Of a stretch of 64,000 nt of DNA, positions 4,651-26,751 are shown in pieces; position 1 is the first letter of the stretch; every line of letters starts with the position of its first letter. Source of the stretch: Candidatus Bathyarchaeota archaeon (GTDB taxonomy: Archaea; Thermoproteota; Bathyarchaeia; 40CM-2-53-6; RBG-13-38-9); the NCBI GenBank assembly GCA_026015185.1, contig JAOZGX010000047.1, positions 3,475 to 67,474 on the forward strand. The letters run 5' to 3'. The notes beneath the pieces are model-generated. The model was not told the origin of the DNA. It made no database searches and was given only the letters and a program-made list of their open reading frames with translations. Both the position numbers and the translations under genes were made by a program.

Positions 4651-5505
4651 CTAAGTTAGAGATTCTGTTCTTTTACCAAAATAAGGTAACTTGTCTGTAA
4701 GACCTGATCCTCTCGAAGTATAATGGTCTAATGTCTTTCTTCTATAGTCTCCAACTAAAACATCTAACCTTCCAATATCTATTTCTTTCATTTTATTTTT
4801 CCCTTTTGAAAGATACTCTATAGCTAATTCGAGCATCTCGTATCTTTCGATCCTCAATACGTTTATCAGATCGTTTTTATTTTCCTTTAGAAAATTTGAT
4901 AATTTTTCGTAATCCATAGGAACGCTTCTGTAACCAAAATCAATCCTCTTCCAAAGAGAATTCATCTCAAAAGTATCGATATCGATTCCAGTAGATAATT
5001 GATGGATGATATTTTTTGAAATTCTTCCATCATCAGGATCTGTAATATCCATCCCCATATCTACACCAATTTTATAGAAATGATCTGCAAATTTGTTCCA
5101 GTCGCGTAGTTTAACAGATTTTAGATTTCCTTCTCGATCAGTCTCCCTCCAGGAAAAGCTTTCATTACCAAAAGCCCATTCATATAAATATGCCTCATAC
5201 GAGTCATCTCCGACTCTACTGATCGAGCCTAAGGGCCTAGGGATGTGGGCCAGATTATAAACATGTTTTCTGTAAAAATAATCTTCTAATTTTTTAATAA
5301 TCATATGCCTAAGAAACATTTTATGACCGCTTTTTGGAGAGAGGTTATATTCTTCACGTAATGCAGTAACTGCTCCTTCTTGAGTGATAATTGTTCCACC
5401 TATGCCAGGAAATTTAGTTCTTAACTCAACTAGAACTCTAGCTTCACTACCAATACCACCTTCACATATGAATTCAATGATGCCTTCTTCGTTCCTTTTT
5501 ACCAT
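4651..5505 (-). CDS. Hypothetical protein
   Basis: 284-aa ORF in a dense coding context. No motif recognised by eye. Confidence 0.4.
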   Translation of the reverse strand: MVKRNEEGIIEFICEGGIGSEARVLVELRTKFPGIGGTIITQEGAVTALREEYNLSPKSGHKMFLRHMIIKKLEDYFYRKHVYNLAHIPRPLGSISRVGDDSYEAYLYEWAFGNESFSWRETDREGNLKSVKLRDWNKFADHFYKIGVDMGMDITDPDDGRISKNIIHQLSTGIDIDTFEMNSLWKRIDFGYRSVPMDYEKLSNFLKENKNDLINVLRIERYEMLELAIEYLSKGKNKMKEIDIGRLDVLVGDYRRKTLDHYTSRGSGLTDKLPYFGKRTESLT

Positions 5506-5588: not shown

Positions 5589-5912
5589 TTATTCTGATCC
5601 AAATTCACGAATTATCTCTAATCTCATTGAAATAACTTCTAAAGTTAATTGACTTTTAAGTACTAAAGCAACTATCTTTCTTACTTTCGCACATTCATTT
5701 GCATACATTTTGGCTCTAGTGAAATCTTTGGTCATCTGAGAAGATACACATCGATCAAAGAGTTTTTCGTTATACTTTTGCATCTTCTTAAAAATGTTCT
5801 CTAATCTATTTTGTTGAATTTTCAAATCTTCTATGGAATCTAAGATCTTTTCTTTTGCGTGTTGAGAATCCCAATCATTCGATAACGAGTTCTTGATATT
5901 ATTAGATAGCAA
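5589..5912 (-). CDS. Truncated ESCRT-III/CdvB-like paralog (N-terminal half only)
   Basis: 107 aa. Aligns to the N-terminal helices of the CdvB gene at 25475-26143 (MLSNNIKN.. vs MPSNRIKN..; FDRCVSSQMTKDFTRAKMYANECAKVRK vs FDKCVSSQMTKDSARAAMYANECAEVRK). It stops right after REFG. Confidence 0.55.
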   Translation of the reverse strand: MLSNNIKNSLSNDWDSQHAKEKILDSIEDLKIQQNRLENIFKKMQKYNEKLFDRCVSSQMTKDFTRAKMYANECAKVRKIVALVLKSQLTLEVISMRLEIIREFGSE

Positions 5913-8529: not shown

Positions 8530-8691
8530 TACGCTTAATAATTGCTTTTCAATCATCCCCCACATATTTTGACCCTTAATAATCACAATAGCAAAAGGTT
8601 TTTATCTTAATTTTCTTTGCTTACTCATAATTCATTCAAAATTGCAAATTTAAGAATAGAAATTGAAAAAAACGGAGGTAGTTTGAAAAAT

Positions 8692-10344
8692 ATGGCTTAT
8701 CTTGCAGGTCAACCTATAATAGTATTAAAGGAAGGGACCTCTAGAAGTAGTGGAAAAGACGCTAAGAGATCCAATATCATGGCAGCGAAAGTTATTGGTG
8801 AAGTCGTTAAAAGTACACTTGGCCCACGTGGCATGGATAAAATGCTTGTGGACAGTCTTGGAGATGTTACCGTTACCAATGACGGAGCTACAATATTAGA
8901 TGATATAGATGTACAGCATCCTGCTGCAAAGATGATGGTGGAAGTTGCCAAAACACAAGATGATGAGGTTGGTGATGGAACAACAACAGCTGTTGTAATA
9001 GCATCTGAATTATTGAAAAGAGCAGAAGAACTCCTGGACGATAAAATTCACCCGACAATCATTGTAAGTGGTTATAAGAAAGCTGGGGAAAAGGCGATGG
9101 AGGTATTGAATTCGATCGCTGTTCCAGTTGATTTAAAAGATAGAAATATTCTCAAAAAGGTAGCTATAACTTCTATGCATAGCAAGGGTGTTGGAGCAGC
9201 TCGAGAACATTTTGCAGAAATATCAATAGATGCTGTAAATCAAATAGTAGAAAAAGTTGGAGAAATTAACTCTGCTGATCTGGATAATATTCAGATCATA
9301 AAGAAAGAAGGTAAAAGCCTTCTCGATACAGAATTAGTAAAAGGCATGATAATCGACAAAGAAGTAGTTCATACAGGCATGCCAAAGAGTCTTGAGAATC
9401 CAAAGATAACCCTATTAGACTGTGCACTGGAGATTGAAAAAACAGAATTCAGTGCAGAGATAAGAATTAACGATCCAAATCAGATGAAGGCATTTCTCGA
9501 TGAAGAGACACAAATGATGAAGAGCATGGTTGATAAGATAAAAGCCTCTGGAGCAAATGTAGTTTTATGCCAAAAAGGTATAGATGACACAGTCCAACAC
9601 TTCTTAGCTAAAGAGGGCATAATGGCTATAAGAAGAATAAAGAAATCGGATATGGAGAAGCTCGCTAGAGCTACTGGTGCAAAAATTATAACTAATGTAG
9701 ATGATTTGACATCAAAGGATCTTGGAACTTCAGGTACCATAGAAGAGAAAAGGCTTGGAGACGATAAGATGGTATTCATAGAAGGGTGCAAAGATCCGAA
9801 ATCAGTCGCGATACTGATCAGAGCGGGATTGGAAAGGTTAGTAGATGAGGCTGAAAGAGCTTTGAATGATTCGCTATCAGTGCTTGCTGCTGTAGCAAGA
9901 GATCCAAGAATTGTGGCTGGCGGAGGAGCCGTTGAGATCGAAGTTTCGAAGAAGATAAAAGACTATGCTTCTAAAGTGGGCGGTAGAGAGCAAATGGCGA
10001 TTGAATCATTTGCTGGTGCTTTAGAAACTATACCTAGAACTCTTGCAGAGAACGCAGGTTTGGATCCAATAGACATAATGGTCAACCTAAAAGCAGCTCA
10101 TGAAAAGAAAGATGGCCTGTGGTTTGGCGTAGATGTTTTCAGTGGAAACAACAAAGATATGATGAAGAAGGGAGTTATTGAACCATTAAGAGTAAAGACA
10201 CAAGCTATAAAGTCAGCTGTCGAATCATGTTCTATGATCTTAAGAATAGATGATGTAATAGCTGCTGCAAGAGCGCCTCCAGGTCCGCCTGGTGGAATGC
10301 CTGGTGGAATGCCTGGTGGAATGCCCGGTATGCCCGAATATTAG
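8692..10344 (+). CDS. ths: Thermosome (group II chaperonin) subunit, paralog 1
   Basis: Group II chaperonin motifs ([23 protein letters not shown]-binding GDGTTT) and a C-terminal [12 protein letters not shown] tail. GGAGGT sits 12 nt upstream of the ATG at 8692. Confidence 0.9.
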
Positions 10345-10373
10345 ATGAATGCTAAAAAGGAGTGATAAGTTAA

Positions 10374-12041
10374 ATGTCTCAATCAGAAGTAATATCTGCT
10401 AATGTTGGTGGTCAACCCGTTCTAATACTAAAGGAGGGTACGCAAAGAAATACGGGCAAGGAAGCTCAGAAGAATAATATCATGGCAGCGAAAATTGTAT
10501 CCGAGTCGGTAAGATCTTCTCTTGGCCCAAAAGGCATGGATAAAATGCTTGTAGACAGCTTCGGTGATGTTACAGTAACTAATGACGGGGCAACAATTCT
10601 AAAAGAAATAGATGTGCAACATCCAGCTGCAAAGATGATGGTAGAAGTATCAAAGGCTCAAGATGATGAGGTTGGTGATGGAACTACAACGGCTGTAGTT
10701 CTTGCAGGTGAACTGCTCAGCAAAGCAGAGGATCTCATTGATAAGGAAATCCACCCAACGGTCATTGTCGATGGCTACCGCAAAGCATCAGAAAAAACAC
10801 TGGAGTTGTTAAAAGACATAAGTACAAAAGTTGATCCTGATGATAAGAATGTTCTAAAGAAAGTGGCCATTGTTTCTCAAATAAGTAAACTATTAGCCGA
10901 CCATGCTGACTTCATAGCAGATCTAACAGTAGGAGCTGTATTACATGTAGCTGAAAAAACTCCAGAAGGATATAAGGCAGATATTGAGGATATCAAGGTA
11001 GAGAAAAAAGCTGGGGAATCACTTACTGATACAAGATTGATTAAGGGAATTGTTTTGGACAAAGAAGTTGTCCATACAGGCATGCCAAAGAGATTGGAAA
11101 ATCCCAAGATCGCTCTACTTAATTGTCCATTAGAAGTTGAAAAAACTGAGTTCGATGCAAAGATAAATATTCAAAATCCTGATCAGATGAAGGCATTTCT
11201 AGATGAGGAAGAAAATCTACTCAAAGACATGGTTGAAAAATTATCTTCAAGTGGGGTCAATCTAGTAGTCTGTCAAAAAGGCATTGACGATATGGCACAA
11301 CATTACTTAGCAAAGAAAGGAATAGCTGCTGTGAGAAGAGCTAGTGAGAAAGATCTGGAGAAACTGGCTAGAGCTACTGGTACCAGAATAGTCACTAATG
11401 TTGATGATCTTAGCTCAAAGGATTTAGGAACAGCAGGACTATTCGAAGAGCGAAAGATCGGAGATGATAAGATGACATTCATAGAGGAGTGCAAGAGTCC
11501 TAGGGCAGTTACTATACTAATTCGTGGTGCAACTGAGAGGATAATAAACGAGGCTGAAAGGTCGATACACGATGCATTATGTGTAGTCAGGGATGTTGTA
11601 AGGGACCCAAGAATCGTAATCGGTGGAGGGGCTATCGAGGTCGAATTATCTGTCAATCTTGATGAGTGGGCTGAAAAAGAGTCAGGAAGAGAACAGCTTG
11701 CAATAAAGGCTTTCGCTGAATCCTTGGAAGCTATTCCCACTGTTTTAGCAGAGAACGCAGGTTTGGATCCAATAGACATAATGGTCAACCTAAGAGCTGC
11801 ACATGAGAAAGGCGAAAAATGGGCAGGAATCGATTTGTTTGAGGGAAAAATCAAGGATCTTTACAAAGAAGGTGTATATGAACCAGCCGTTGTGAAAGAA
11901 CAGATTGTCAAATCAGCTGGCGAAGCTGCAAATATGATCCTAAAGATTGATGATGTCATCGCATCCTCCAAGACTAGAGAAGGCCCAATGCCCCCTGGTG
12001 GAGGACCTCCAGGTGGAATGGGTGGAGAAGACCTAGAGTAG
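10374..12041 (+). CDS. ths: Thermosome (group II chaperonin) subunit, paralog 2
   Basis: Same family motifs as paralog 1 and a glycine-rich C-terminal tail. About 60% identical to paralog 1. Confidence 0.9.
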
Positions 12042-16847: not shown

Positions 16848-16965
16848 GGGCCGGTAGTTCAGCCCGGTATACCTTTAATACAAAGGGCCAAAGAACGTCC
16901 GGTTTGCAAGGTATTTTACCCAAAATGCCGGAAAGCCGCGGGTTCAAATCCCGCCCGGTCCACCA
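16848..16965 (+). tRNA. tRNA-Ala (UGC) with two intron-like insertions (D-arm ~23 nt; anticodon-loop region ~18 nt), CCA encoded
   Basis: Acceptor stem GGGCCGG/CCGGUCC with a G3:U70 pair. Anticodon stem UCCGG/CCGGA with loop UUUGCAA, and T-arm GCGGG-UUCAAAU-CCCGC. 118 nt against 77 nt mature. Confidence 0.8.
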
Positions 16966-18249: not shown

Positions 18250-19533
18250 TTGAAAGTGATCGCAGATTTTCATATACATTCTAGATATAGCCGTGCAACC
18301 AGTAAGAATATGGATCTAATTGAAATCTCACGTTTCTGCAAGATTAAAGGATTAAACCTAATCGGCACCGGAGATTTTACTCACCCCAAATGGCTAAGCG
18401 AATTGAGAGAAGGATTAACGGAAATTGATGGAAGCGGTTTGTATAGACTCTCACATAATGAGAAGGACCCCACGCTTTTCATGATAAGCGGAGAAGTTTG
18501 CACAATCTTTAACCGTAATGAAAAGAGCCATAGAATTCATCATGTAATCCTTGCACCAAGTTTAGATAATGCAGAACAAATATCTGATGCTCTTCAGAAA
18601 TATGGAGACCTTGATGTAGATGGAAGACCCTTCCTCAAGATGAATGCTGCTCATTTAGTTGAAATCATCTCAGAATTATCAAATCAAAATGTAATTTTTC
18701 CTGCTCATGCTTGGACTCCGTGGTATAGTGTCTTCGGCTCAATTTCAGGATTTGATTCTTTAGAAGACTGCTATGAAGATTTTTCACATAAGATTTTTGC
18801 ATTAGAAACTGGACTTTCTTCGGACCCGTTAATGAATTGGAGAGTAAGTGATTTAGATAATTTGGCTTTACTATCAAACTCAGATAGTCATTCAGCCTGG
18901 CCTTGGAGGATTGGTAGAGAGGCTAATGTCTTTGAACTGAATAAAATGACATATAATGATATAATTGATTCAATAAAAAGCAGAAATGATAATTTTCTTT
19001 TTACAATAGAGACTAATCCTGCCTATGGAAAATATCATTGGACAGGACACAGAAATTGTGGAATTTCTTTCCCTGCAAAAGATGCAATGTCTCGGGGCAA
19101 TGTTTGTCCCATATGTCGTAAAAAATTGACTAAAGGTGTTGAACAACGGGTTGAGGAAATGGCCGACCGAGAAATCGGTTATAAACCTTCAAATGCCAAA
19201 GACTTTTTCCATCTTCTTCCACTTTCAGAGATAATAGCATTTATACTTGGAAAGGAACAATTGGCCAGCCCTAAAATCTGGGAAGTATATAACTCTCTTA
19301 TTAAAAAATTCGATAATGAATATTCCGTACTTATTGATGCAAAAAAAGAGGGTATAACGATGGTTGCTGGAAAAGAAATTGCTGACACAATAATTGGGAT
19401 AAGAGAAGGGAGAATGAGAGTCGAGCCTGGTTATGATGGTGTTTATGGTAAACTCGAAAAAAAAGACAAATTAGACAGACAAAAAACAAAAGAAGTCAAG
19501 AAGATTACTAATCTTGATGATTATATTAACTAA
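18250..19533 (+). CDS. Endonuclease Q-like (PHP domain + C-terminal zinc ribbon)
   Basis: N-terminal DFHIHSRYSRATS PHP motif, as in Pyrococcus EndoQ, and a C-terminal CPICRKKL zinc ribbon. 427 aa. Confidence 0.6.
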   Translation: MKVIADFHIHSRYSRATSKNMDLIEISRFCKIKGLNLIGTGDFTHPKWLSELREGLTEIDGSGLYRLSHNEKDPTLFMISGEVCTIFNRNEKSHRIHHVILAPSLDNAEQISDALQKYGDLDVDGRPFLKMNAAHLVEIISELSNQNVIFPAHAWTPWYSVFGSISGFDSLEDCYEDFSHKIFALETGLSSDPLMNWRVSDLDNLALLSNSDSHSAWPWRIGREANVFELNKMTYNDIIDSIKSRNDNFLFTIETNPAYGKYHWTGHRNCGISFPAKDAMSRGNVCPICRKKLTKGVEQRVEEMADREIGYKPSNAKDFFHLLPLSEIIAFILGKEQLASPKIWEVYNSLIKKFDNEYSVLIDAKKEGITMVAGKEIADTIIGIREGRMRVEPGYDGVYGKLEKKDKLDRQKTKEVKKITNLDDYIN

Positions 19534-19544
19534 GGATATAGGAT

Positions 19545-20162
19545 CTATTCAAAATTCTGGTCCAGTTTCTTTTCTTCCGATTCTTTGATAATATCTTCTA
19601 CATCTTTTTTTTCTAGAAACAAAAAGTTCAGATTTTGTTCGATCGATTTTGATGCTTTTGTATATTTGCTACTCTCAATTTTTCCTTCTTTCTTTCCAGT
19701 TCTTATCTCTACTAAAAAGTTTGTTAATTCATTGATTTGTCTGTCTAATTCTTCTTGTCGTTGCTTCATGCTACTAATGAATTCATTATTCTGTCCCTTC
19801 AATGAATCTATCGATTGCTTCTGATTGGCTTTGAGATTTTCATAGATTTCTTTACTTACTTCTTCCTTCTCCAGCATTGCCTCCAGGGCATCCATTCTGC
19901 TTCGGAATGTATTGAGCTCTTTTATCATTTGTTCAGCCTGAATTTTCCATTCTGGTATGATTACTATCTCATCTTTATTCGTCATCATTTGCTCTGCGGA
20001 ATATTTGACTAATCTGCCTTCACTTTGATCTACCTTAATGGATTCTAATTCGCCATCAGAATTCTTTAAAATCGCCACAACTTGACCTAAATAACGTCCA
20101 TAGATGTCCCTAGTCTTTTTTCCAAAGAAATGTTTCATTTCAATATTAGAAAATGAAAACAT
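19545..20162 (-). CDS. cdvA: CdvA (PRC-barrel + coiled-coil cell-division protein)
   Basis: N-terminal PRC-barrel-like region (GRYLGQVVAI...IVIIPEW) followed by a long coiled coil and an acidic C-terminus. Adjacent to a cdvB. Confidence 0.7.
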   Translation of the reverse strand: MFSFSNIEMKHFFGKKTRDIYGRYLGQVVAILKNSDGELESIKVDQSEGRLVKYSAEQMMTNKDEIVIIPEWKIQAEQMIKELNTFRSRMDALEAMLEKEEVSKEIYENLKANQKQSIDSLKGQNNEFISSMKQRQEELDRQINELTNFLVEIRTGKKEGKIESSKYTKASKSIEQNLNFLFLEKKDVEDIIKESEEKKLDQNFE

Positions 20163-20200
20163 ACTTTCAACGACTGTTTATTTTATTTCCTAAAAGAGTA

Positions 20201-20818
20201 TCAGATTTTTGATTCCTTAGTAGGTATTGGTGGAATCTCTGGAAGCGTTTCCTTCATCTTCTGTTCAGCTACAGCCGTGGCTTCATCCAAGATTTTATTA
20301 CCTTCTTCTGTTGGAATTGATGTATCAACTGATTGATCAGTAGCATCTCCTATCTCTACAACCATATTTTGTAATGTTTCACCAATGTCTGATAATTCAT
20401 TAGAGATGTCAGGAAGAATGCTCACAAGCTGTGACTTGATTCCGTCAATTACGCTAAGAACAGATCCCATTAGATATGTGTACTCTCCAAAGTCTTTAAT
20501 CGTCTCCAGTCGTAATTTTACCTGTTCCAGAGCAAGTTGACTTTTTATTGTTGTCATCATAATTTTCCGTATTTCTGCACATTCGTTCGCATACATTGTA
20601 GCCATTTCATTTTTCTTTGATTGCAAAGCAGAAACACATTTCTTGTATAATTCTTTGTCTCTATTTTGTAATTGATATGATTTTCTCTCTAAATGCTTAA
20701 GTTGAACAGAAAGTCGATGGAGAGTCGAAGTAATCTTTCGTTTCATTGGGGTTGGATGTATAGCTTCCTTTATTCTTTCTGTAAATGATGGTTTTTTTCT
20801 AAACACTATTTTTCTCAA
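20201..20818 (-). CDS. cdvB: CdvB (ESCRT-III/Snf7 family) with proline-rich MIM2-like C-terminus
   Basis: Snf7 core (MYANECAEIRK.., LALEQVKLRLETIKDFGE) and a C-terminal LPEIPPIPT motif. Confidence 0.8.
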   Translation of the reverse strand: MRKIVFRKKPSFTERIKEAIHPTPMKRKITSTLHRLSVQLKHLERKSYQLQNRDKELYKKCVSALQSKKNEMATMYANECAEIRKIMMTTIKSQLALEQVKLRLETIKDFGEYTYLMGSVLSVIDGIKSQLVSILPDISNELSDIGETLQNMVVEIGDATDQSVDTSIPTEEGNKILDEATAVAEQKMKETLPEIPPIPTKESKI

Positions 20819-20828
20819 CTCTTTATTT

Positions 20829-21509
20829 TTATTTTATTTTTGGTGTTTCCAAAAATATTTCCTTATTTGCCATTTTAGCAATCTTAAGATTATTAGTGGT
20901 CAATAAGACCGTACGATCTCGTAAATGTTTAAGGCCTTTTAGAAATGGAATAAAGGTATTTATTGTTGGAGAATCAAGATTGGATACTGGCTCATCCAAG
21001 ATAAGAATTGGTGGATCCAAGATAAGTGCGCGAGCGATCTCAGTTTTTTTTCTTTCACCAGCACTGATTTCATTTGGTAGGAACTTGGATTTTTTTGATA
21101 TTCCAAAAAATTCCAGTAGCTCTTTAACTCGAGATTTCTGCTCAGAAAATGGAATCTTTTTTAGTAGCATTGGCAATTGGATGTTCTCATAAACAGTAAG
21201 ATCAGATATCAAAGTTGATGTTTGAAGAACTAATCCCATTTTTTCTAATCTTAGTCTTGTTATCTTTCTATCTCCAATTTTTGATAAATCTTGGCCAATA
21301 ACAGATATAACTCCCTCGCTCGGTTTTTCCAATCCTGTTAAAATATTTACTAGAGTAGTCTTTCCGGTTCCGCCCTCTCCAATAATTACAATAAAGTCTT
21401 TCTCATTTAAGCTGAAATTAAGACCATTAAAGAGACGCACAGCTAATCCATTCCTTTCGAACCTTTTATGCAGATTCTCAACATTGATCAGATATTCAAA
21501 ATCTTTCAT
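20829..21509 (-). CDS. ABC transporter ATP-binding protein, FtsE/LolD/MacB-like with degenerate motifs
   Basis: Walker A GEGGTGKTT and Walker B ILILDEP. The signature is the atypical SAGERKK, and an H-loop His is apparently absent (LLTTNN). Its stop overlaps the start of the downstream permease. Confidence 0.7.
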   Translation of the reverse strand: MKDFEYLINVENLHKRFERNGLAVRLFNGLNFSLNEKDFIVIIGEGGTGKTTLVNILTGLEKPSEGVISVIGQDLSKIGDRKITRLRLEKMGLVLQTSTLISDLTVYENIQLPMLLKKIPFSEQKSRVKELLEFFGISKKSKFLPNEISAGERKKTEIARALILDPPILILDEPVSNLDSPTINTFIPFLKGLKHLRDRTVLLTTNNLKIAKMANKEIFLETPKIK

Positions 21510-22000
21510 CGATTAAGCATCTCAGGAATATTCAATTTGGATATTTTTATCAGAGGGGATAGGCAACCAATTAAAGCTGAGATCATAACAAGAATCAATA
21601 CATCTATTATCAGCATCAATCTAGGTGCTACATTAAATAATATCATAAGAGCGATATTTCCGATAACAAATCCTATTATCGATCCTATTAAACCTATGAT
21701 TAGAGATTTGATAATAAAAAAGGTCCATAAAAAGAGCCTTTGGAATCCAATTGCACGAAAGATACTTATATCTCGGGTTCTTTGTGCAAATTCTGAATTC
21801 ATGCATAAGATAATCACACTTGTTATCAGCAATACAGCTGAAGCCATGAGAATATAATTTAATGATTGCATATTGAGCGTATTCAATTCTGTTGTAATCA
21901 CAATTAACAATACTATAGTACCTACATTCAATAATCCCAAAATTAGATTGGGAGATCGAATTTTGAATACCTGCCTAAAAATAAAAAGAAATGTGTTCAT
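21506..22000 (-). CDS. Minimal FtsX-like ABC permease domain (4 TM, no large extracytoplasmic domain)
   Basis: 164 aa. FtsX/MacB permease motif AQRTRDISIFRAIGF. Four predicted TM helices. Confidence 0.6.
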   Translation of the reverse strand: MNTFLFIFRQVFKIRSPNLILGLLNVGTIVLLIVITTELNTLNMQSLNYILMASAVLLITSVIILCMNSEFAQRTRDISIFRAIGFQRLFLWTFFIIKSLIIGLIGSIIGFVIGNIALMILFNVAPRLMLIIDVLILVMISALIGCLSPLIKISKLNIPEMLNR

Positions 22001-22007
22001 TTTATCA

Positions 22008-22490
22008 TCAACCCATACTGACGTCTTTAGTCAGTAATTTTAGGAAGTTTCCAGAATCTCTATTTCCATAGGTCTTTATGACAGGGGCAGTATATTCCAT
22101 CTTAACATTGAAGATTTTAAGTTTCGATATTGCCTCATTAATTTCAGCTTTATCTTTGCCTACTAGAAGAATTATGCTTTCAGGAGAGCCTAAAGAGCTT
22201 ATCACTTTCATTGTTTGAGGGATCGCCATAATTTTTTTGAGTATTTCTTCTCTCTCAGAGTTTGGTGGAAGAGTCAATCCTACATACATTTGTTCATTTA
22301 GGCCAAGTTTTTCAAAATCCAATTCCACAGTATAATCCTTAATTATTCCTTGCTTCTCCATTTTGTTTATTCTATATGCTACAACGTTTGGATGAAGGTT
22401 TAGTTTTTTGCCGATCTTAACAAGTGAGGTTTTAGAGTTCTCAATTAATTCAGACAAAATCTTTAAATCAATATAATCAATGAACTTCAT
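22008..22490 (-). CDS. Lrp/AsnC-family transcriptional regulator
   Basis: N-terminal HTH (DLKILSELIENSKTSLVKIGKKLNLHPNVVAYRI) plus a C-terminal RAM domain. 160 aa. Confidence 0.75.
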   Translation of the reverse strand: MKFIDYIDLKILSELIENSKTSLVKIGKKLNLHPNVVAYRINKMEKQGIIKDYTVELDFEKLGLNEQMYVGLTLPPNSEREEILKKIMAIPQTMKVISSLGSPESIILLVGKDKAEINEAISKLKIFNVKMEYTAPVIKTYGNRDSGNFLKLLTKDVSMG

Positions 22491-22505
22491 CTAATTACCC
22501 CCATA

Positions 22506-23645
22506 TTAAAGAGCTTTAAACTCCTCAAACCACTTCTCATAATGCCTGATAGTATTAGGAGAAATGCTTGGTTTTCTTCTCTTGAAAATTTCTGAGAAAT
22601 CATTCATGTCAATATATCTTGGAGCAGTATTCTTGTCTTCCGGATTGCCATTCTCAAATAGATCTCTTACCACTTTGATTTGAGCTGATTGAAAGATATC
22701 TCTTATATCGCTTCCAGAGTAGCCAGCAGTCATTTTTGAAAGTTCATTGAAATCAACATTGGGAGATATCTTAAGATTTTTTGAAAACAGCTTAAACATT
22801 TCTGATCTTGATATAGCATCAGGTAAAGGAACAAAGATCCTTTTCTGAAACCTTCTAATGAATGGGTGATCCAGTGCCCAAGGTTTATTGGTGGCACCTA
22901 TAACGTAAGAATGTGTAGATTGGTTTTTGTCCAAAATCCCGTCCATTTCTTTAAGAAATTGATTTCTCGCTCTAGCTTCGCCACCCACTTCACCAACACT
23001 ATATCTAACTAAAGAATCTATCTCATCAATGAAAATGATCGCTGGTTGATCATTAGTGCTTTTTTTCTTAGCATCTTTAAAAAGTTGTGCAACATTCTTT
23101 TCGGATTCACCAAGCCATTTTGACATTATTGAAGCTGCATCGACACAAAAGAAAGTTGCATCGATTTCGGTAGCAATAGCCGCAGCCAGTAATGTTTTTC
23201 CACAACCAGGAGGACCAAAAAACAATATACCTCCTGGCCACCCAAGTGGAAACAGATCAGGTCTTTTTGCAGGAAAAACTATTGATTCTTCTATAGCCTT
23301 TTTTGCTACTTTTAAATTAGCAATGTCGCTCCATCTAACGGAGGGCTTTTCGGTCAATACTAATTGATCAAATTTAGCTTTACCTTCATCAGAGGGTAAT
23401 AAAGTTGAGTCTTGACTTTCTGGTTGGCCACTTAAGGATTCAATCCTTTTTTTGTAAGACTCCACATGTTCCATGTATATTTTATTTTGAGGTGAATTCG
23501 GATATAGTGCACAAAGTTTCAGTAAAATTTCAATAGCCCTTTGAAATTTTGCAGTCGCTAATCCTCTGGAACCTTGTTGATCTAATTGAATAGCCTCTGA
23601 AGCATATTTGACAGCTAATTTTTCTAATTCTTCAGAAGCGGACAT
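22506..23645 (-). CDS. cdvC: CdvC / Vps4-like AAA+ ATPase with N-terminal MIT domain
   Basis: MIT-like helical N-terminus, Walker A GPPGCGKT, Walker B IIFIDEID and second region of homology. ATG at 23645 is preferred over the upstream GTG. Confidence 0.85.
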   Translation of the reverse strand: MSASEELEKLAVKYASEAIQLDQQGSRGLATAKFQRAIEILLKLCALYPNSPQNKIYMEHVESYKKRIESLSGQPESQDSTLLPSDEGKAKFDQLVLTEKPSVRWSDIANLKVAKKAIEESIVFPAKRPDLFPLGWPGGILFFGPPGCGKTLLAAAIATEIDATFFCVDAASIMSKWLGESEKNVAQLFKDAKKKSTNDQPAIIFIDEIDSLVRYSVGEVGGEARARNQFLKEMDGILDKNQSTHSYVIGATNKPWALDHPFIRRFQKRIFVPLPDAISRSEMFKLFSKNLKISPNVDFNELSKMTAGYSGSDIRDIFQSAQIKVVRDLFENGNPEDKNTAPRYIDMNDFSEIFKRRKPSISPNTIRHYEKWFEEFKAL

Positions 23646-23678
23646 AAACACCACAAGACCATTTTTTATTCAAGCTTA

Positions 23679-24233
23679 TTATTCGATTATCACTTTTCCT
23701 TCCTTTTTCAGGTAATCTACCGCTCTTTTCACATCCTCTGGAGTAACTTCTAACCAAGAGGCACATTCTGTAATGCTTAAATCACCTTTACGTTCTTTCA
23801 GATAATCATAAACTCGCTCATACAATGGCAATGCTTCTCCATCCGTTGTTAAAGCTACAGGTTCAGGTTTGTTTGACTCTTTGGAGAATGTTGGGAAATC
23901 TGGTATATCGGGGAATTGTTCTTTAATTCTCTGTTCAGCAAGTATATTTGATTCTTCTAAAACCTTTTTTGCTTCTTGATTTGCAGCAACTTCCTCAATA
24001 TTTCTTACCGATGGTACAGCTGCTTCGGTACTTAACTCGTTTAGCATAGAGTTGACATCTTCAATACCACTAGCCACTTCGGGAACAAAATCTGAAATCC
24101 TATTTTCAGTTTCTTTTAAAATGCTCATTACTGGGTTTAGATTTGTCAGAACGTCTTTAAATTCGGAAATCCTTTGAAGTCTAATAACAACCTTTTCTAA
24201 AGAAAGCTGACTACTTATTGCTAGTTTTACCAT
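23679..24233 (-). CDS. cdvB: CdvB paralog (ESCRT-III) with MIM2-like motif and C-terminal winged-helix-like domain; real N-terminus encoded upstream (to about 24446) without canonical start
   Basis: The annotated ORF starts mid-Snf7 domain. The upstream in-frame sequence encodes ...LKDKLSQVIYQLNDQ...AKIYANECAEIRK, contiguous with MVKLAISSQ. The C-terminus contains FPDIPDFP and LSITECASWLEVTPEDVKRAVDYLKKEG. Confidence 0.6.
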   Translation of the reverse strand: MVKLAISSQLSLEKVVIRLQRISEFKDVLTNLNPVMSILKETENRISDFVPEVASGIEDVNSMLNELSTEAAVPSVRNIEEVAANQEAKKVLEESNILAEQRIKEQFPDIPDFPTFSKESNKPEPVALTTDGEALPLYERVYDYLKERKGDLSITECASWLEVTPEDVKRAVDYLKKEGKVIIE

Positions 24234-24465
24234 TTTCCGTATTTCTGCACATTCATTCGCATAGATTTTTGCATGTGAAAAATCCTTAGTAACTTGAGCG
24301 CCTACACACTTTTGGAGGATTTCTTTGTCTCTTTGCTTAAGTTTTGATATAGAGTTTTCTAGGTTTTCTAATTGATCATTGAGCTGGTAAATTACCTGCG
24401 ATAATTTATCTTTAAGAGATTTAGAGGGGAGAATCTTTCCCTTTATCCTCTCGAGGATTGAAATC

Positions 24466-25458
24466 TCAAAAATCCTCCCTTATTTTAACTATAATTTTAT
24501 CTTTTGGTTCATCTGAAGTTGTTTGGGTTTCTTCTTCCTCAATGGTTGAAGAAGTCATGTCGTCTTTTGGTTCTTCTGAAGTGGCCTGGGTTTCTTCTTC
24601 ATCTATGGTTTCTTCTTTATCCGTGGTTTCTTCTTCTTCCTCTTCTTCTTCCTCTGTTGAAGTTACATCATCCTTTAATTCTTCGTCATCCGTGGTTTTT
24701 TCTTCATCCATGCTTGTAGAGGTCATGTATTCCTTTGATTCATCTAAAGTTGTTTGGGTTTCTTCTTCCTCAATGGTTGAAGAAGTCATGTCGTCTTTTG
24801 GTTCTTCTGAAGTGGCCTGGGTTTCTTCTTCCTCTGTTGTTGAAATAACTACCTTAGTTTCGTCAAAGCTAATAATTTCTTTAGAAATGTCATCAATCTT
24901 ATTTTTCTCTTTTAGTGCACTCTCAATATGCTTTTGGATGATTTCTTGACAAGGTTTGAATGTCACCTCGTCCATTTCTCCCGAATGAAATTGCATTTTA
25001 TTATTGGCAAAAATAATTTGAAGTTCATTTATTTTATTGATCAGATCTTCCTTTCTCTTTTCTGCTTTTTCTAAAATATTTTCACGCGACTCTTTTATTT
25101 TTGAAAATGAGCTTTCATAATTGCTTTTCAATGATTTATAGAATTCTTCACGTATTTCTCCAGATTTATAAAGTTCATCTAGTGCATTGATTCTCTTTCT
25201 CAAAGTATTAAGCTGTCTTAGTATCCCTTTTGCCTCTTTTTCCCATGGCGGCAGGCAAATAATTCGCCCTTGCTCAATAGCCACTTGATTTATAGGGTAC
25301 TCAATGAATTCGCCTTTTCCTGATAGTGTCTTAATGGATTCAGCTTTATTATTAGCATCTAACTCAAGATTAATTATCTTGCCTATTGTTCTTCCGTAGG
25401 CATCAAAAACAGACTCGCCTAAGTATTTCTTAATTTCTTCCAAATTTTTTTCCTCCAA
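24466..25458 (-). CDS. CdvA-like paralog with long acidic Thr/Glu-rich repetitive C-terminal tail
   Basis: N-terminal PRC-barrel-like region plus coiled coil, homologous to 19545-20162 (IICLPPWEKEAKGILRQLNTLRKRINALDE vs IVIIPEWKIQAEQMIKELNTFRSRMDALE). Then about 130 aa of TTEEEETQ(A/T)TS(E/D)EPKDDMTSS repeats. Confidence 0.6.
   Translation of the reverse strand: MEEKNLEEIKKYLGESVFDAYGRTIGKIINLELDANNKAESIKTLSGKGEFIEYPINQVAIEQGRIICLPPWEKEAKGILRQLNTLRKRINALDELYKSGEIREEFYKSLKSNYESSFSKIKESRENILEKAEKRKEDLINKINELQIIFANNKMQFHSGEMDEVTFKPCQEIIQKHIESALKEKNKIDDISKEIISFDETKVVISTTEEEETQATSEEPKDDMTSSTIEEEETQTTLDESKEYMTSTSMDEEKTTDDEELKDDVTSTEEEEEEEEETTDKEETIDEEETQATSEEPKDDMTSSTIEEEETQTTSDEPKDKIIVKIREDF
24500..24600. 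repeat. Direct repeat copy 1 (~100 bp, ~95% identical to 24731-24831) inside the CdvA-like tail coding region
   Basis: catctgaagttgtttgggtttcttcttcctcaatggttgaagaagtcatgtcgtcttttggttcttctgaagtggcctgggtttcttcttc recurs with 2-3 substitutions. Confidence 0.85.
24731..24831. repeat. Direct repeat copy 2
   Basis: See copy 1. This encodes the repeated peptide KDDMTSSTIEEEETQTT. Confidence 0.85.
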
Positions 25459-25474
25459 TTTTATTTTTTTAATA

Positions 25475-26143
25475 TCAGGTTTGTGATTGTTCTCTGGTTC
25501 TATAATCCGAGGCTTGAGTGGAATCTGATTCCATAGATGTAAAGTCTGGGAATTTCTCTTTCACTCTCTGCTCAGCCACTGTTTCAGCCTCGCCTAAAAT
25601 TTTGCTAGCTTCTGAGCTTGGTGCTTCTGTATTAATATCTTGACCAGTGGCTTCACCTATCTCAACTACCATACCATTGAGTGTCTCCCCAATATCATCA
25701 AGTTCATAGGACATTTCAGGCATTATACCACTGATTTGTGTCTTCACAGATCTCACGACTTCGGTAACAGGTCCCATTAAAGCAGCAAATTCTCCAAATT
25801 CACGAATTGTTTCTAATCTTAATGATACTTGTTCTAAGGCAAGTTGACTCCTAAGAGTTATTGCAGCCATCTTTCTTACTTCAGCACACTCATTAGCGTA
25901 CATGGCAGCTCGAGCAGAGTCTTTTGTCATTTGGGATGAGACACATTTATCAAATAATTCTCTGTCGTGTCGTTGCATCCTCATTACAGCATTTTCTAGC
26001 TTATTTTGTTGAGTTCGTAACCGGTAAATAGTTTTCGAAATTTTTTCCTTAAGACTCGGTTGCTGCTGTAGTATACCTGAGAATTTTATATTAACGGGTG
26101 GACTTTCATCTTTATCCCAGTTTTTTATCCTATTACTTGGCAA
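25475..26143 (-). CDS. cdvB: CdvB (ESCRT-III/Snf7 family)
   Basis: Snf7 core (MYANECAEVRKM, LALEQVSLRLETIREFGE) and a C-terminal FPDF motif. 222 aa. Confidence 0.8.
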   Translation of the reverse strand: MPSNRIKNWDKDESPPVNIKFSGILQQQPSLKEKISKTIYRLRTQQNKLENAVMRMQRHDRELFDKCVSSQMTKDSARAAMYANECAEVRKMAAITLRSQLALEQVSLRLETIREFGEFAALMGPVTEVVRSVKTQISGIMPEMSYELDDIGETLNGMVVEIGEATGQDINTEAPSSEASKILGEAETVAEQRVKEKFPDFTSMESDSTQASDYRTREQSQT

Positions 26144-26398
26144 TTTAATTCCTCAATTTGTGATTCTCATGAATAGTTTTTGATAAATACAAAAAATACG
26201 GCAGAATCCTTTAAGATTAATAAAAGGAATATGTAAAAAACTAAGAAAATAACTAGAAGATTTCTCATAATTTCGTCTTAAATAGACTAGCCTAAGTGTT
26301 GGTTGAAAAAGAGCCAGATTGTCTTATTCAATAATAAAACTTAAGTAAAACTCAAGTAGGCTATGAATCTTGAAAGAGTGCGTATTCAAGGAATGCAA

Positions 26399-26406
26399 GG
26401 AGGTGA
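26399..26406 (+). promoter_or_regulatory. Shine-Dalgarno-like GGAGGTGA upstream of alba
   Basis: GGAGGTGA lies 6 nt before the ATG at 26413. Confidence 0.5.
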
Positions 26407-26412
26407 AATTGC

Positions 26413-26751
26413 ATGTCTGAAAGTTCAAATGATACAGAGAAAGAGGCAGAAGTAGCACCAAAAGCAAGAACTCCTATCCCCCCAGACACCATACTAATAG
26501 GTAGCAAGCCAGTCATGGCCTATGCAACGGCTGTTATGATGCATTTCCATGGAGGTAGGAATACCTTAACTATTAAAGCCAGAGGTAGAGCCATTAGCAG
26601 AGCAGTCGATGTAGTCGAAGTTGTACGAAGGAGGTTCTTTGGAGGTAAATTAGCAGTCAAAGATGTACAAATTGGAACCCAAGCTCTAGGTGAGGGCGGA
26701 GACGTAAGGAACGTATCTACAATAGAAATCAAAGTGGAGAAAAAAGATTAA
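26413..26751 (+). CDS. albA: Alba DNA/RNA-binding chromatin protein
   Basis: 112 aa with Alba core (IGSKPVMAYATAVMMHFHGG..TIKARGRAISRAVDVVEVVRRRF). Confidence 0.85.
   Translation: MSESSNDTEKEAEVAPKARTPIPPDTILIGSKPVMAYATAVMMHFHGGRNTLTIKARGRAISRAVDVVEVVRRRFFGGKLAVKDVQIGTQALGEGGDVRNVSTIEIKVEKKD

Follow-up and report, generated by a model that had tools for sequence, protein, structure and literature searches.

We describe a compact and expanded gene cluster for the Cdv/ESCRT-III division machinery in a member of the Bathyarchaeia, located on contig JAOZGX010000047.1 of a Candidatus Bathyarchaeota archaeon within a stretch of 64,000 nucleotides (nt) hereafter called the window. Nine minus-strand genes are packed between positions 19545 and 26143 and read, in the direction of transcription, cdvB_1, cdvA_L, cdvB_wH, cdvC, an Lrp regulator gene, mini-ftsX, the gene of an ATP-binding cassette (ABC) ATPase, cdvB_3, and cdvA_s, with consecutive spacers of 16, 1, 24-33, 15, 7, -4 (an overlap), 10, and 38 nt, the last being the longest. 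We interpret the nine genes as a single, probably co-transcribed cdv operon built in two layers, where the second layer, from lrp to cdvA_s, likely works together with a core that ends with cdvC, and where the core gene cdvB_wH appears to be translated from an AUU codon; as a whole, we give this interpretation a probability of roughly 75%. It is supported by the tight gene packing, the gene order shared by independent contigs, the nested states of related loci, and the paired presence or absence of the ABC genes and cdvA_s. An earlier note on the same DNA had proposed Cdv genes, an ABC pair, and an Lrp regulator within 6.6 kb on one strand: all nine open reading frames (ORFs) are indeed present in the ORF list for 17-29 kb, and profile searches confirm their families.

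The genes and their relevant elements, in transcription order (aa, amino acids; wH, winged helix), are:

25475..26143, minus strand: cdvB_1, a 222-aa ESCRT-III protein of the CdvB1/B2 type that lacks a wH; opens the presumed operon
24466..25458, minus strand: cdvA_L, CdvA of 330 aa with PRC barrel, coiled-coil hairpin, Glu/Thr/Asp-rich repeat tail, and C-terminal strand-like peptide
24499..24843, minus strand: acidic, low-complexity repeats of CdvA_L, spanning 115 residues with 37 E, 25 T, and 14 D
24469..24504, minus strand: C-terminal peptide KDKIIVKIREDF of CdvA_L, candidate ESCRT-III-binding (E3B) strand
24474..24479, minus strand: Shine-Dalgarno (SD)-like GGGAGG, 9 nt upstream of ATT 24464
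23679..24464, minus strand: cdvB_wH, full-length CdvB of 261 aa with a putative ATT start at 24464
22506..23645, minus strand: cdvC, Vps4-type AAA+ ATPase, 379 aa from ATG, with a GTG 9 nt upstream at 23654
22008..22490, minus strand: transcription regulator of the Lrp/AsnC family (160 aa), immediately following cdvC
21506..22000, minus strand: mini FtsX-domain permease, 164 aa, four predicted transmembrane (TM) helices; overlaps the ABC gene by 4 nt
20829..21509, minus strand: ABC ATPase of the LolD/MacB/FtsE (type VII) kind, 226 aa
20201..20818, minus strand: cdvB_3, second ESCRT-III protein of the CdvB1/B2 type, 205 aa
19545..20162, minus strand: cdvA_s, short CdvA paralog of 205 aa and last gene; retains barrel region and coiled coil but lacks the linker and an E3B-like tail

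Core Cdv Genes

Domains were assigned by Pfam and NCBIfam profile searches (Pfam cutoffs: CdvA 30 bits, Snf7 27.3, MIT 30, and FtsX 25.5; NCBIfam equivalog cutoffs: CdvA 350, CdvB 370, CdvB1/B2 350, and CdvC 650 bits), which place the CdvA-like and CdvB-like ORFs in the CdvA and Snf7/CdvB families, as the earlier note had supposed. The Snf7 fold is recognized by Pfam at 30.2 bits in cdvB_3, 29.1 in cdvB_wH, and 24.3 in cdvB_1, the latter below cutoff, and by the NCBIfam CdvB1/B2 model with E values from 1e-45 to 1e-63 (1.1e-62 for cdvB_1). In all three CdvB families the ESCRT-III core ends in a conserved (K/R)E-x-FP-[ED]-[IL]-P motif that aligns with the MIM2 region of Sulfolobus islandicus CdvB ('eqfpdipdf' opposite 'ellpdlphp'); in cdvB_1 the motif alignment identifies it as EKFPDF at the C terminus. 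CdvC, in turn, features MIT, AAA, AAA_lid_3, and Vps4_C domains and matches the NCBIfam CdvC model over its full length (E 9.5e-154), with AAA and Vps4_C above their Pfam cutoffs and MIT, at 27.8 bits, slightly under its own. It is 100% identical to MCW4032622.1 from a metagenome-assembled genome of a Candidatus Bathyarchaeota archaeon.

CdvA_L scores above cutoff for both Pfam CdvA (65.9 bits) and PRC (25.4 bits), and retrieves the CdvA structure 9s9g from the PDB with an E value of 7.5e-19. Its acidic region, underlain by tandem repeats of 18 and 63 nt, is restricted in the ortholog alignment to the window and its closest relative (L002), with other CdvA_L orthologs carrying a short Pro-rich linker in its place. 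At the extreme C terminus, an h-V-h-h-h-V-K/R-E pattern recurs in the in-locus CdvA of about 65 loci, ending in IIVKIREDF in the window, in VLVLHVRET or IVIVRMEP in other loci, and in PPVVVYVKE[IV]GKAGI in a distant clade; this strand-like motif is a feature of CdvA_L orthologs that CdvA_s lacks. In Sulfolobus, the E3B peptide of CdvA binds the winged helix of CdvB, and by analogy the CdvA_L C-terminal peptide is a probable E3B strand for the winged helix of the CdvB encoded next downstream.

When read as 261 residues, this downstream CdvB_wH matches Pfam Snf7 over residues 25-188 and is aligned by the NCBIfam CdvB model over 19-259 of 260. Its AlphaFold2 model (mean predicted local distance difference test score, pLDDT, 80.7) comprises an ESCRT-III core of helices α1-α5, a disordered linker holding a MIM2-like FPDIPDFP, and a confident C-terminal three-helix domain (residues 214-255) that, as modeled, is of the wH type. 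A Foldseek search with the model returned CdvB2 filaments and S. islandicus CdvB as top matches (E 1e-10); the wH structure 2XVC was not recovered by sequence search.

Distribution across Bathyarchaeia

One genome per GTDB species was scanned with a CdvC alignment, yielding 80 loci, nearly all labeled as Bathyarchaeota or Bathyarchaeia, that were then annotated by tblastn with the window proteins. The order cdvB-cdvA-cdvB(wH)-cdvC is found in nearly all of these CdvC-anchored loci, with the cdvB_1 ortholog at the same leading position. The earlier note had taken Thaumarchaeota as its frame of reference, which is not relevant here because the close CdvC homologs are all from Bathyarchaeia, where this four-gene order is the rule.

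The full nine-gene order is confined to one monophyletic subclade that counts, besides the window, at least 13 representatives of GTDB species, with CdvC proteins 61-78% identical to the window's own; two relatives (CdvC 71% and 77% identical) show the order Snf7-CdvA-CdvB-CdvC-HTH-FtsX-ABC-Snf7-CdvA followed by a convergent PHP/MJ0043_C gene. On a neighbor-joining tree of CdvC, the full-set subclade holds the window together with L003, L004, L005, L007, L010, L011, L012, L014, L015, and L018, as well as the contig-truncated members L006, L008, L013, and L016. The remaining loci fall into nested states: a large clade with the core only, a sister clade in which Lrp has been added (L009, L023, and L070), and, between the latter and the full set, loci with both Lrp and cdvB_3 (L019, L021, L025, and L064). 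Lrp follows cdvC throughout the upper clade of the tree. On every contig that permits the judgment, the ABC pair and cdvA_s come as a set or are jointly missing, even as they occupy two separate insertion points, the former between lrp and cdvB_3 and the latter after cdvB_3. Judged from this pattern, the nine-gene order is a clade trait that appears to have arisen by stepwise accretion.

Together, the gene identities and the order conserved in related genomes bear out the earlier proposal of a consolidated, expanded Cdv locus. Its claim of an unusual architecture needs to be divided: the arrangement is not singular, being common to the representatives above, and its identical occurrence across public genomes goes halfway toward undoing the claim; what stands is that the literature searched yielded no paper describing the operon.

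The Lrp Regulator and the ABC Pair

The regulator inserted after cdvC is assigned to the Lrp/AsnC family by its DNA-binding domain (HTH_24 47 bits and HTH_AsnC-type 39 bits, both above cutoff); a putative C-terminal RAM (ligand) domain is suggested by below-cutoff, full-length NCBIfam alignments to LysM and AsnC, and the Lrp model likewise stays below cutoff. The permease that follows scores 45.1 bits against Pfam FtsX and finds YtrF, MacB, and LolE as its best, if uniformly weak, PDB matches. Its loop between TM1 and TM2 spans only about eight residues, so that the extracytoplasmic domain defining FtsX, MacB, and LolC is missing, and its orthologs are similarly small at 155-170 aa. A word-indexed homolog search with mini-FtsX returned five matches, and an exhaustive profile search of 1.84 billion representative proteins confirmed the narrowness of the family: two clusters score below 1e-30, followed by generic FtsX domains with E values of at least 3e-10.

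The partner ATPase (ABC_tran 108.3 bits) is closest to LolD, YtrE, MJ0796, BceA, MacB, and FtsE, with PDB matches to LolD at E 3e-39 and to FtsE at about 3e-29. It preserves Walker A (GEGGTGKT), the Q-loop, and Walker B with its glutamate (ILILDEP), but falls short of the full catalytic motif set: the signature is degenerate, with ISAGE in place of LSGGQ and LSLGE, LSFGE, LSSGE, or LSAGQ in orthologs, and the H-loop histidine is lost, being replaced by N, S, A, or L in 12/12 orthologs, from loci among L001-L018. The H-loop variants TTNN, TTNS, ATNS, TTAL, and TTAV stand opposite VTHD in LolD, and the window's own sequence reads 'llttnnl' against 'lvvthdl'. These substitutions suggest an ATP-binding switch rather than a fast hydrolase.

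The combination of an FtsX-domain TM bundle with an adjacent ABC_tran nucleotide-binding domain (NBD) places the pair in the type VII ABC superfamily, of which it appears to be a narrow, fast-evolving, and stripped-down module. The FtsE/FtsX-like label of the earlier note is valid at this superfamily level and no deeper: the equivalog models for FtsE (155.6 vs. 264.85 bits, TIGR02673), LolD (180.1 vs. 307.75), and FtsX_actino (15.9 vs. 250) all score below their cutoffs, and with neither the extracytoplasmic domain nor the H-loop histidine present, we rejected FtsEX orthology. A defense-system reading was likewise dropped, as PADLOC gave only generic P-loop and helix-turn-helix (HTH) similarity.

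The alternative that survives best sees Lrp and the ABC pair as passengers without a functional connection, such as a small peptide/lipid export or resistance module with its regulator, leaving only the six Cdv genes to serve division. Lrp-type regulators are commonly found beside transporters, the best matches of the ATPase (LolD, YtrE, BceA, and MacB) are exporters and resistance modules, and the mini-FtsX homologs bear the JGI name 'ABC-type antimicrobial peptide transport system permease'. Such passengers would, however, have kept their place between cdvC and cdvB_3 across the clade while the ATPase diverged to 35% identity, and would strictly co-occur with cdvA_s despite the different points of insertion; the lost extracytoplasmic domain and H-loop histidine further argue against an ordinary exporter, and the permease family is almost absent elsewhere. 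We thus regard the passenger explanation as unlikely and favor a second layer that works with the Cdv core.

The Second CdvA and the Additional ESCRT-III Genes

CdvB_3 matches the NCBIfam CdvB1/B2 model with an E value of 1.5e-52, is 52% identical to CdvB_1, and carries a MIM2-like motif, ETLPEIPPIP. The last gene product, CdvA_s (MCW4032617.1, 'CdvA-like protein' at NCBI), scores 44.6 bits against Pfam CdvA and is aligned to the NCBIfam CdvA model with 9-194 matching 7-191, with no significant Pfam PRC match; it is 26% identical to CdvA_L over 8-194. Its orthologs similarly have neither linker nor C-terminal peptide, and their C-termini are not conserved. Without an E3B-like tail, CdvA_s would have to use a partner other than the winged helix of CdvB_wH. 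The names that NCBI gives to the neighbors of CdvC include 'CdvA-like protein', 'Snf7 family protein', and 'ATP-binding cassette domain-containing protein'.

These features also bear on a second alternative, in which layer 2 is a separate ESCRT machine that shares CdvC with the core and serves a nondivision task such as extracellular-vesicle budding or membrane repair. Sulfolobales ESCRT-III paralogs also take part in vesicle formation (cited in PMC11188069), CdvA_s, with no tail to recruit a wH-bearing CdvB, cannot simply duplicate CdvA_L, and the complete absence of layer 2 from related lineages means that it is not needed for division as such. Weighing on the opposite side are the place of layer 2 in the same tightly packed operon, the close paralogy of CdvB_3 and CdvB_1 with their shared MIM2 motif, and a sequence that gives no pointer to cargo recognition; a sigma-70 promoter/terminator scan found no terminator-like site on the minus strand within the operon, a result that is uninformative because the host is an archaeon. 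We consider a separate machine somewhat less probable than passenger genes, and retain the view of one division operon in which the second layer complements the first.

A further CdvB paralog lies apart from the cluster:

5589..5912, minus strand: detached half-size CdvB, 107 aa, α1-α2 hairpin only, 17 kb from the operon

The truncated CdvB that the earlier note placed at 5.6 kb is genuine: it is 51% identical to residues 1-117 of CdvB_1 and matches positions 19-119 of 212 in the NCBIfam CdvB1/B2 model (4.9e-20). No remainder of the gene was found in other frames at the 5589-5912 locus, and the half CdvB could represent either a gene remnant or a hairpin-only ESCRT-III protein. The next gene downstream of it (4651-5505) encodes a 284-aa protein without a family match.

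Translation Start of cdvB_wH

Mechanical ORF calling gives cdvB_wH 184 aa (23679-24233, from ATG 24233). The earlier note's identification as a wH-type CdvB was correct and the listed length was not, for the frame stays open up to 24479, and a complete Snf7/CdvB protein emerges when it is read as 261 aa (23679-24464). From the preceding stop up to ATG 24233, no ATG, GTG, or TTG occurs in 82 codons, and the stretch encodes α1 and half of α2: in particular, the 77 codons directly upstream of that ATG specify conserved α1/α2 sequence modeled at pLDDT above 90. Many relatives show the same situation, with the first canonical start 20-118 codons into the open cdvB_wH frame. In the window, GGGAGG (24479-24474) is followed by ATTTTTGAG and then by ATT (24464), with the TGA of cdvA_L (24466-24468) embedded in the spacer.

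When the loci are aligned on helix α1, a GGAGG-type motif and, 6-10 nt further on, an in-frame codon recur 10-16 codons upstream of the α1 anchor column. That codon is ATC, ATT, or ATA in 47/75 Bathyarchaeia loci, and in 12 others the aligned position, likewise preceded by a comparable motif, has a canonical ATG, GTG, or TTG, as illustrated by the pair 'gcg gag gga aaa aaa ATC aaa' (L044) and 'gcg gag gga aaa aaa ATG aga' (L053). A five-nucleotide SD match at 6-10 nt is present in 59/75 loci, as compared with only 4/71 window ORFs of at least 100 aa, among which the pairing of SD with a noncanonical start is unique to cdvB_wH. Because ATC, ATT, or ATA prevails across the loci and ATG, GTG, or TTG stands at the homologous codon in others, a noncanonical start for cdvB_wH is likely. 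The NCBI annotation (MCW4032623.1, beginning MYQLND) also starts at an ATT, and the JGI, Logan, and ENA calls are shortened to 182-189 aa. Archaeal aIF1 discriminates against noncanonical starts (PMC6237735), and an AUU start of cdvB_wH should therefore be weak and factor-sensitive.

A different account of the same region would have cdvB_wH as a 5'-truncated, decaying gene of 184 aa, as the automatic ORF and gene calls would have it, or as part of a CdvA-CdvB fusion made by +1 frameshifting or read-through at TTT-TGA. The window sequence AGGGAGG-AT-TTT-TGA-G does resemble the RF2 (prfB) frameshift site in its SD, slippery TTT, and stop, and cdvB lies in the +1 frame with respect to cdvA. Truncation is at odds with the conserved and confidently modeled upstream codons, however, and fusion with the loci at large, where the cdvA stop and the cdvB frame occur in all three frame relations, anywhere from a 125-nt overlap to 56 nt apart and often with intervening stops, such that no single recoding event fits; what remains invariant is the SD with an in-frame ATH or ATG/GTG/TTG codon. 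A prfB-like frameshift or read-through is accordingly ruled out as a general mechanism, and we hold the truncation and fusion accounts together to be very improbable next to initiation at a noncanonical codon.

Finally, that the super-cluster is a singular and possibly chimeric feature of one assembly, a suspicion that its origin in a metagenome-assembled genome might raise, is refuted: more than 10 assemblies, independent of one another and produced by different studies, have the identical order, which rules out chance or mis-assembly.

Proposed Mechanism

Building on the observed gene identities, domain content, synteny and phylogenetic nesting, motif losses, and start-codon pattern, we propose a two-layer model in which sequence is the basis for inferring how the proteins contact one another, what the ABC pair does, and what the AUU start means for regulation. 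The first layer, cdvB_1-cdvA_L-cdvB_wH-cdvC, is the core cluster and would function by homology with Sulfolobales: CdvA_L would bind the membrane through its PRC barrel and coiled coil and dock the CdvB_wH winged helix with its C-terminal strand, CdvB_wH would template the ring, the wH-less CdvB paralogs would form the constricting polymer, and CdvC/Vps4 would engage the proline-rich MIM2 motifs of the three CdvBs and disassemble the polymers. The second layer, lrp-mini-ftsX-abc-cdvB_3-cdvA_s, was added in steps within one clade, first Lrp, then cdvB_3, and then the ABC pair with cdvA_s. It would supply a dedicated regulator, with Lrp presumably acting on the operon itself, and a second membrane-targeting route, in which the tail-less CdvA and the second constricting ESCRT-III protein work with the minimal type VII ABC module. 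Because the module lacks any domain on the outside and its catalytic site is degenerate, it is more likely to be an ATP-controlled membrane switch or anchor for CdvA_s and CdvB_3 than a transporter. Translation of cdvB_wH from AUU, behind the only strong SD of the operon and beside the cdvA_L stop, may in turn keep CdvB_wH scarce and/or tie its production to that of its partner CdvA_L.

A bolder extension, which we offer tentatively and would not back at even odds, is that a minimal type VII ABC module, gained along with a tail-less CdvA, has been wired into ESCRT/Cdv division as an archaeal counterpart of bacterial FtsEX-divisome coupling, and that the dosage of the ring-templating CdvB is set class-wide by an AUH codon behind a strong SD.

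Several points weigh against the two-layer interpretation. None of the locus's cdv genes reaches its NCBIfam Cdv equivalog cutoff (CdvA 77-88, CdvB 116-144, CdvB1/B2 85-211, and CdvC 512 bits); the alignments are nonetheless full-length and the top matches, and the models appear tuned to crenarchaeal sequences. The CdvC tree is a quick neighbor-joining distance tree without support values, and the survey of division systems is confined to this window. Type VII ABC pairs found next to regulators usually serve export or resistance, the putative tie of the ABC pair and Lrp to division comes from genomic context, and the AlphaFold2 model of mini-FtsX (pLDDT 48.7) was unusable and left out of the fold search. 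As for the start codon, it is uncertain which ATT is used, the one chosen by PGAP lying 24 codons further in than 24464, and one relative (P0276) has an upstream in-frame ATG that overlaps cdvA. More broadly, we know of no observation of cell division in Bathyarchaeia.

Genomic Surroundings

The operon is bordered by the following features:

26144..26412: intergenic region of 269 nt between cdvB_1 and the divergent Alba gene, the only sizeable noncoding stretch
26413-26751, plus strand: Alba gene, divergent flank of the operon
18250-19533, plus strand: PHP-like gene of the TIGR00375/MJ0043_C family, convergent with cdvA_s

The 269-nt region presumably holds the operon promoter. Synteny extends to both borders in a number of relatives, with the PHP gene accompanying the operon in L001-L007, L021, and L064 and Alba in L002, L006, L010, L014-L016, and L021. 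The wider flanks, within the ORF annotation of the window that extends up to 42.6 kb, are made up of ordinary chromosomal genes: Alba, two thermosome subunits, GAPDH, PGK, TruD, a TyrRS/TrpRS-type synthetase, AOR, ETF, and trehalose genes. The two thermosome (Cpn60/TCP-1) subunit genes are adjacent (8617-12041, plus strand) and about 8 kb from the operon. Rfam matches a tRNA over 115 nt (16848-16962, plus strand) at 49.5 bits; absent from the ARAGORN output, it is probably an intron-containing archaeal tRNA.

Comparison with Known Systems

Lindas and Samson, both in 2008, are said to have described a cdvABC operon in Sulfolobales, with the ESCRT-III paralogs CdvB1/B2/B3 unlinked. The bathyarchaeal locus shares with that system (structures 9s9g, 9s9j, and 9s97) a CdvA that combines PRC barrel and coiled coil, a CdvB bearing both wH and MIM2, an MIT-AAA Vps4, wH-less CdvB1/B2-type paralogs, and CdvA-CdvB-CdvC adjacency. 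It differs in its B-A-B(wH)-C order, with a B1/B2-type gene in front, and in holding extra ESCRT-III genes, a second CdvA, a regulator, and an ABC pair within the operon, as well as in the noncanonical cdvB start codon.

The ABC pair resembles other type VII systems (bacterial FtsEX, LolCDE, MacB, and YtrEF; archaeal MJ0796) in its NBD sequence family, the TM2-TM4 region of the FtsX domain, and the cytoplasmic coupling segment, and recalls bacterial FtsEX in its association with a division machine. Unlike these systems, however, it has a 164-aa permease without a Sabre/Porter extracytoplasmic domain, no H-loop histidine, and a degenerate signature, and unlike FtsEX its partner would be an ESCRT rather than an FtsZ system.

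The putative AUU start has a parallel in bacterial infC, which encodes IF3 and is translated from a weak AUU codon used for autoregulation. In each case translation would begin at a near-cognate AUH codon that is conserved, and gene dosage is presumably important; the two are set apart by domain of life and by their initiation factors, and with no feedback loop known in the cdv case, the analogy is a functional one only.

Within archaea, Makarova et al. 2024 reported that Bathyarchaea have additional CdvA-like proteins with an unstructured Glu-rich sequence, encoded outside the cdv locus (PMC11188069 / PMC10936438). Our locus conforms to their phylum-level system (PMC11188069), and differs in that the Glu-rich tail is found on the in-locus CdvA while an extra, tail-less CdvA is encoded inside the extended operon. 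The text and supplements of that study that were searched (PMC11188069 / PMC10936438) make no mention of FtsX, LolD, or a cdv-linked Lrp. The Nitrosopumilus-type system of Thaumarchaeota likewise features CdvA, several CdvB paralogs, and a CdvC of the same TACK Vps4 clade; in contrast, its genes are dispersed, its CdvBs have no fused wH, and a coiled-coil partner, arCOG08707, precedes cdvC (PMC11188069). Across the literature searched, whose coverage is incomplete, we found no prior description of the nine-gene operon or of a cdv-linked ABC/FtsX pair in Bathyarchaeia.

Conclusions

To our knowledge, nearly all understanding of Cdv/ESCRT division comes from Sulfolobales. Bathyarchaeia, for their part, are among the most abundant sediment archaea and barely culturable. 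The locus presented here is a clade-conserved variant of the Cdv system, new with respect to the literature searched, where the existence of extra CdvA paralogs in Bathyarchaea was already known (PMC11188069). It provides a concrete parts list for the stepwise growth of an ESCRT division operon and, with its embedded Lrp, its ABC membrane module, and its second CdvA, puts forward three candidate partners for archaeal ESCRT-III. Furthermore, because of its apparent AUU/AUC/AUA start, a key cdvB gene is routinely called in truncated form in databases, which matters for annotation and for ESCRT-III phylogenies, and the likely start of cdvB_wH makes it a rare candidate for regulated noncanonical initiation in archaea.

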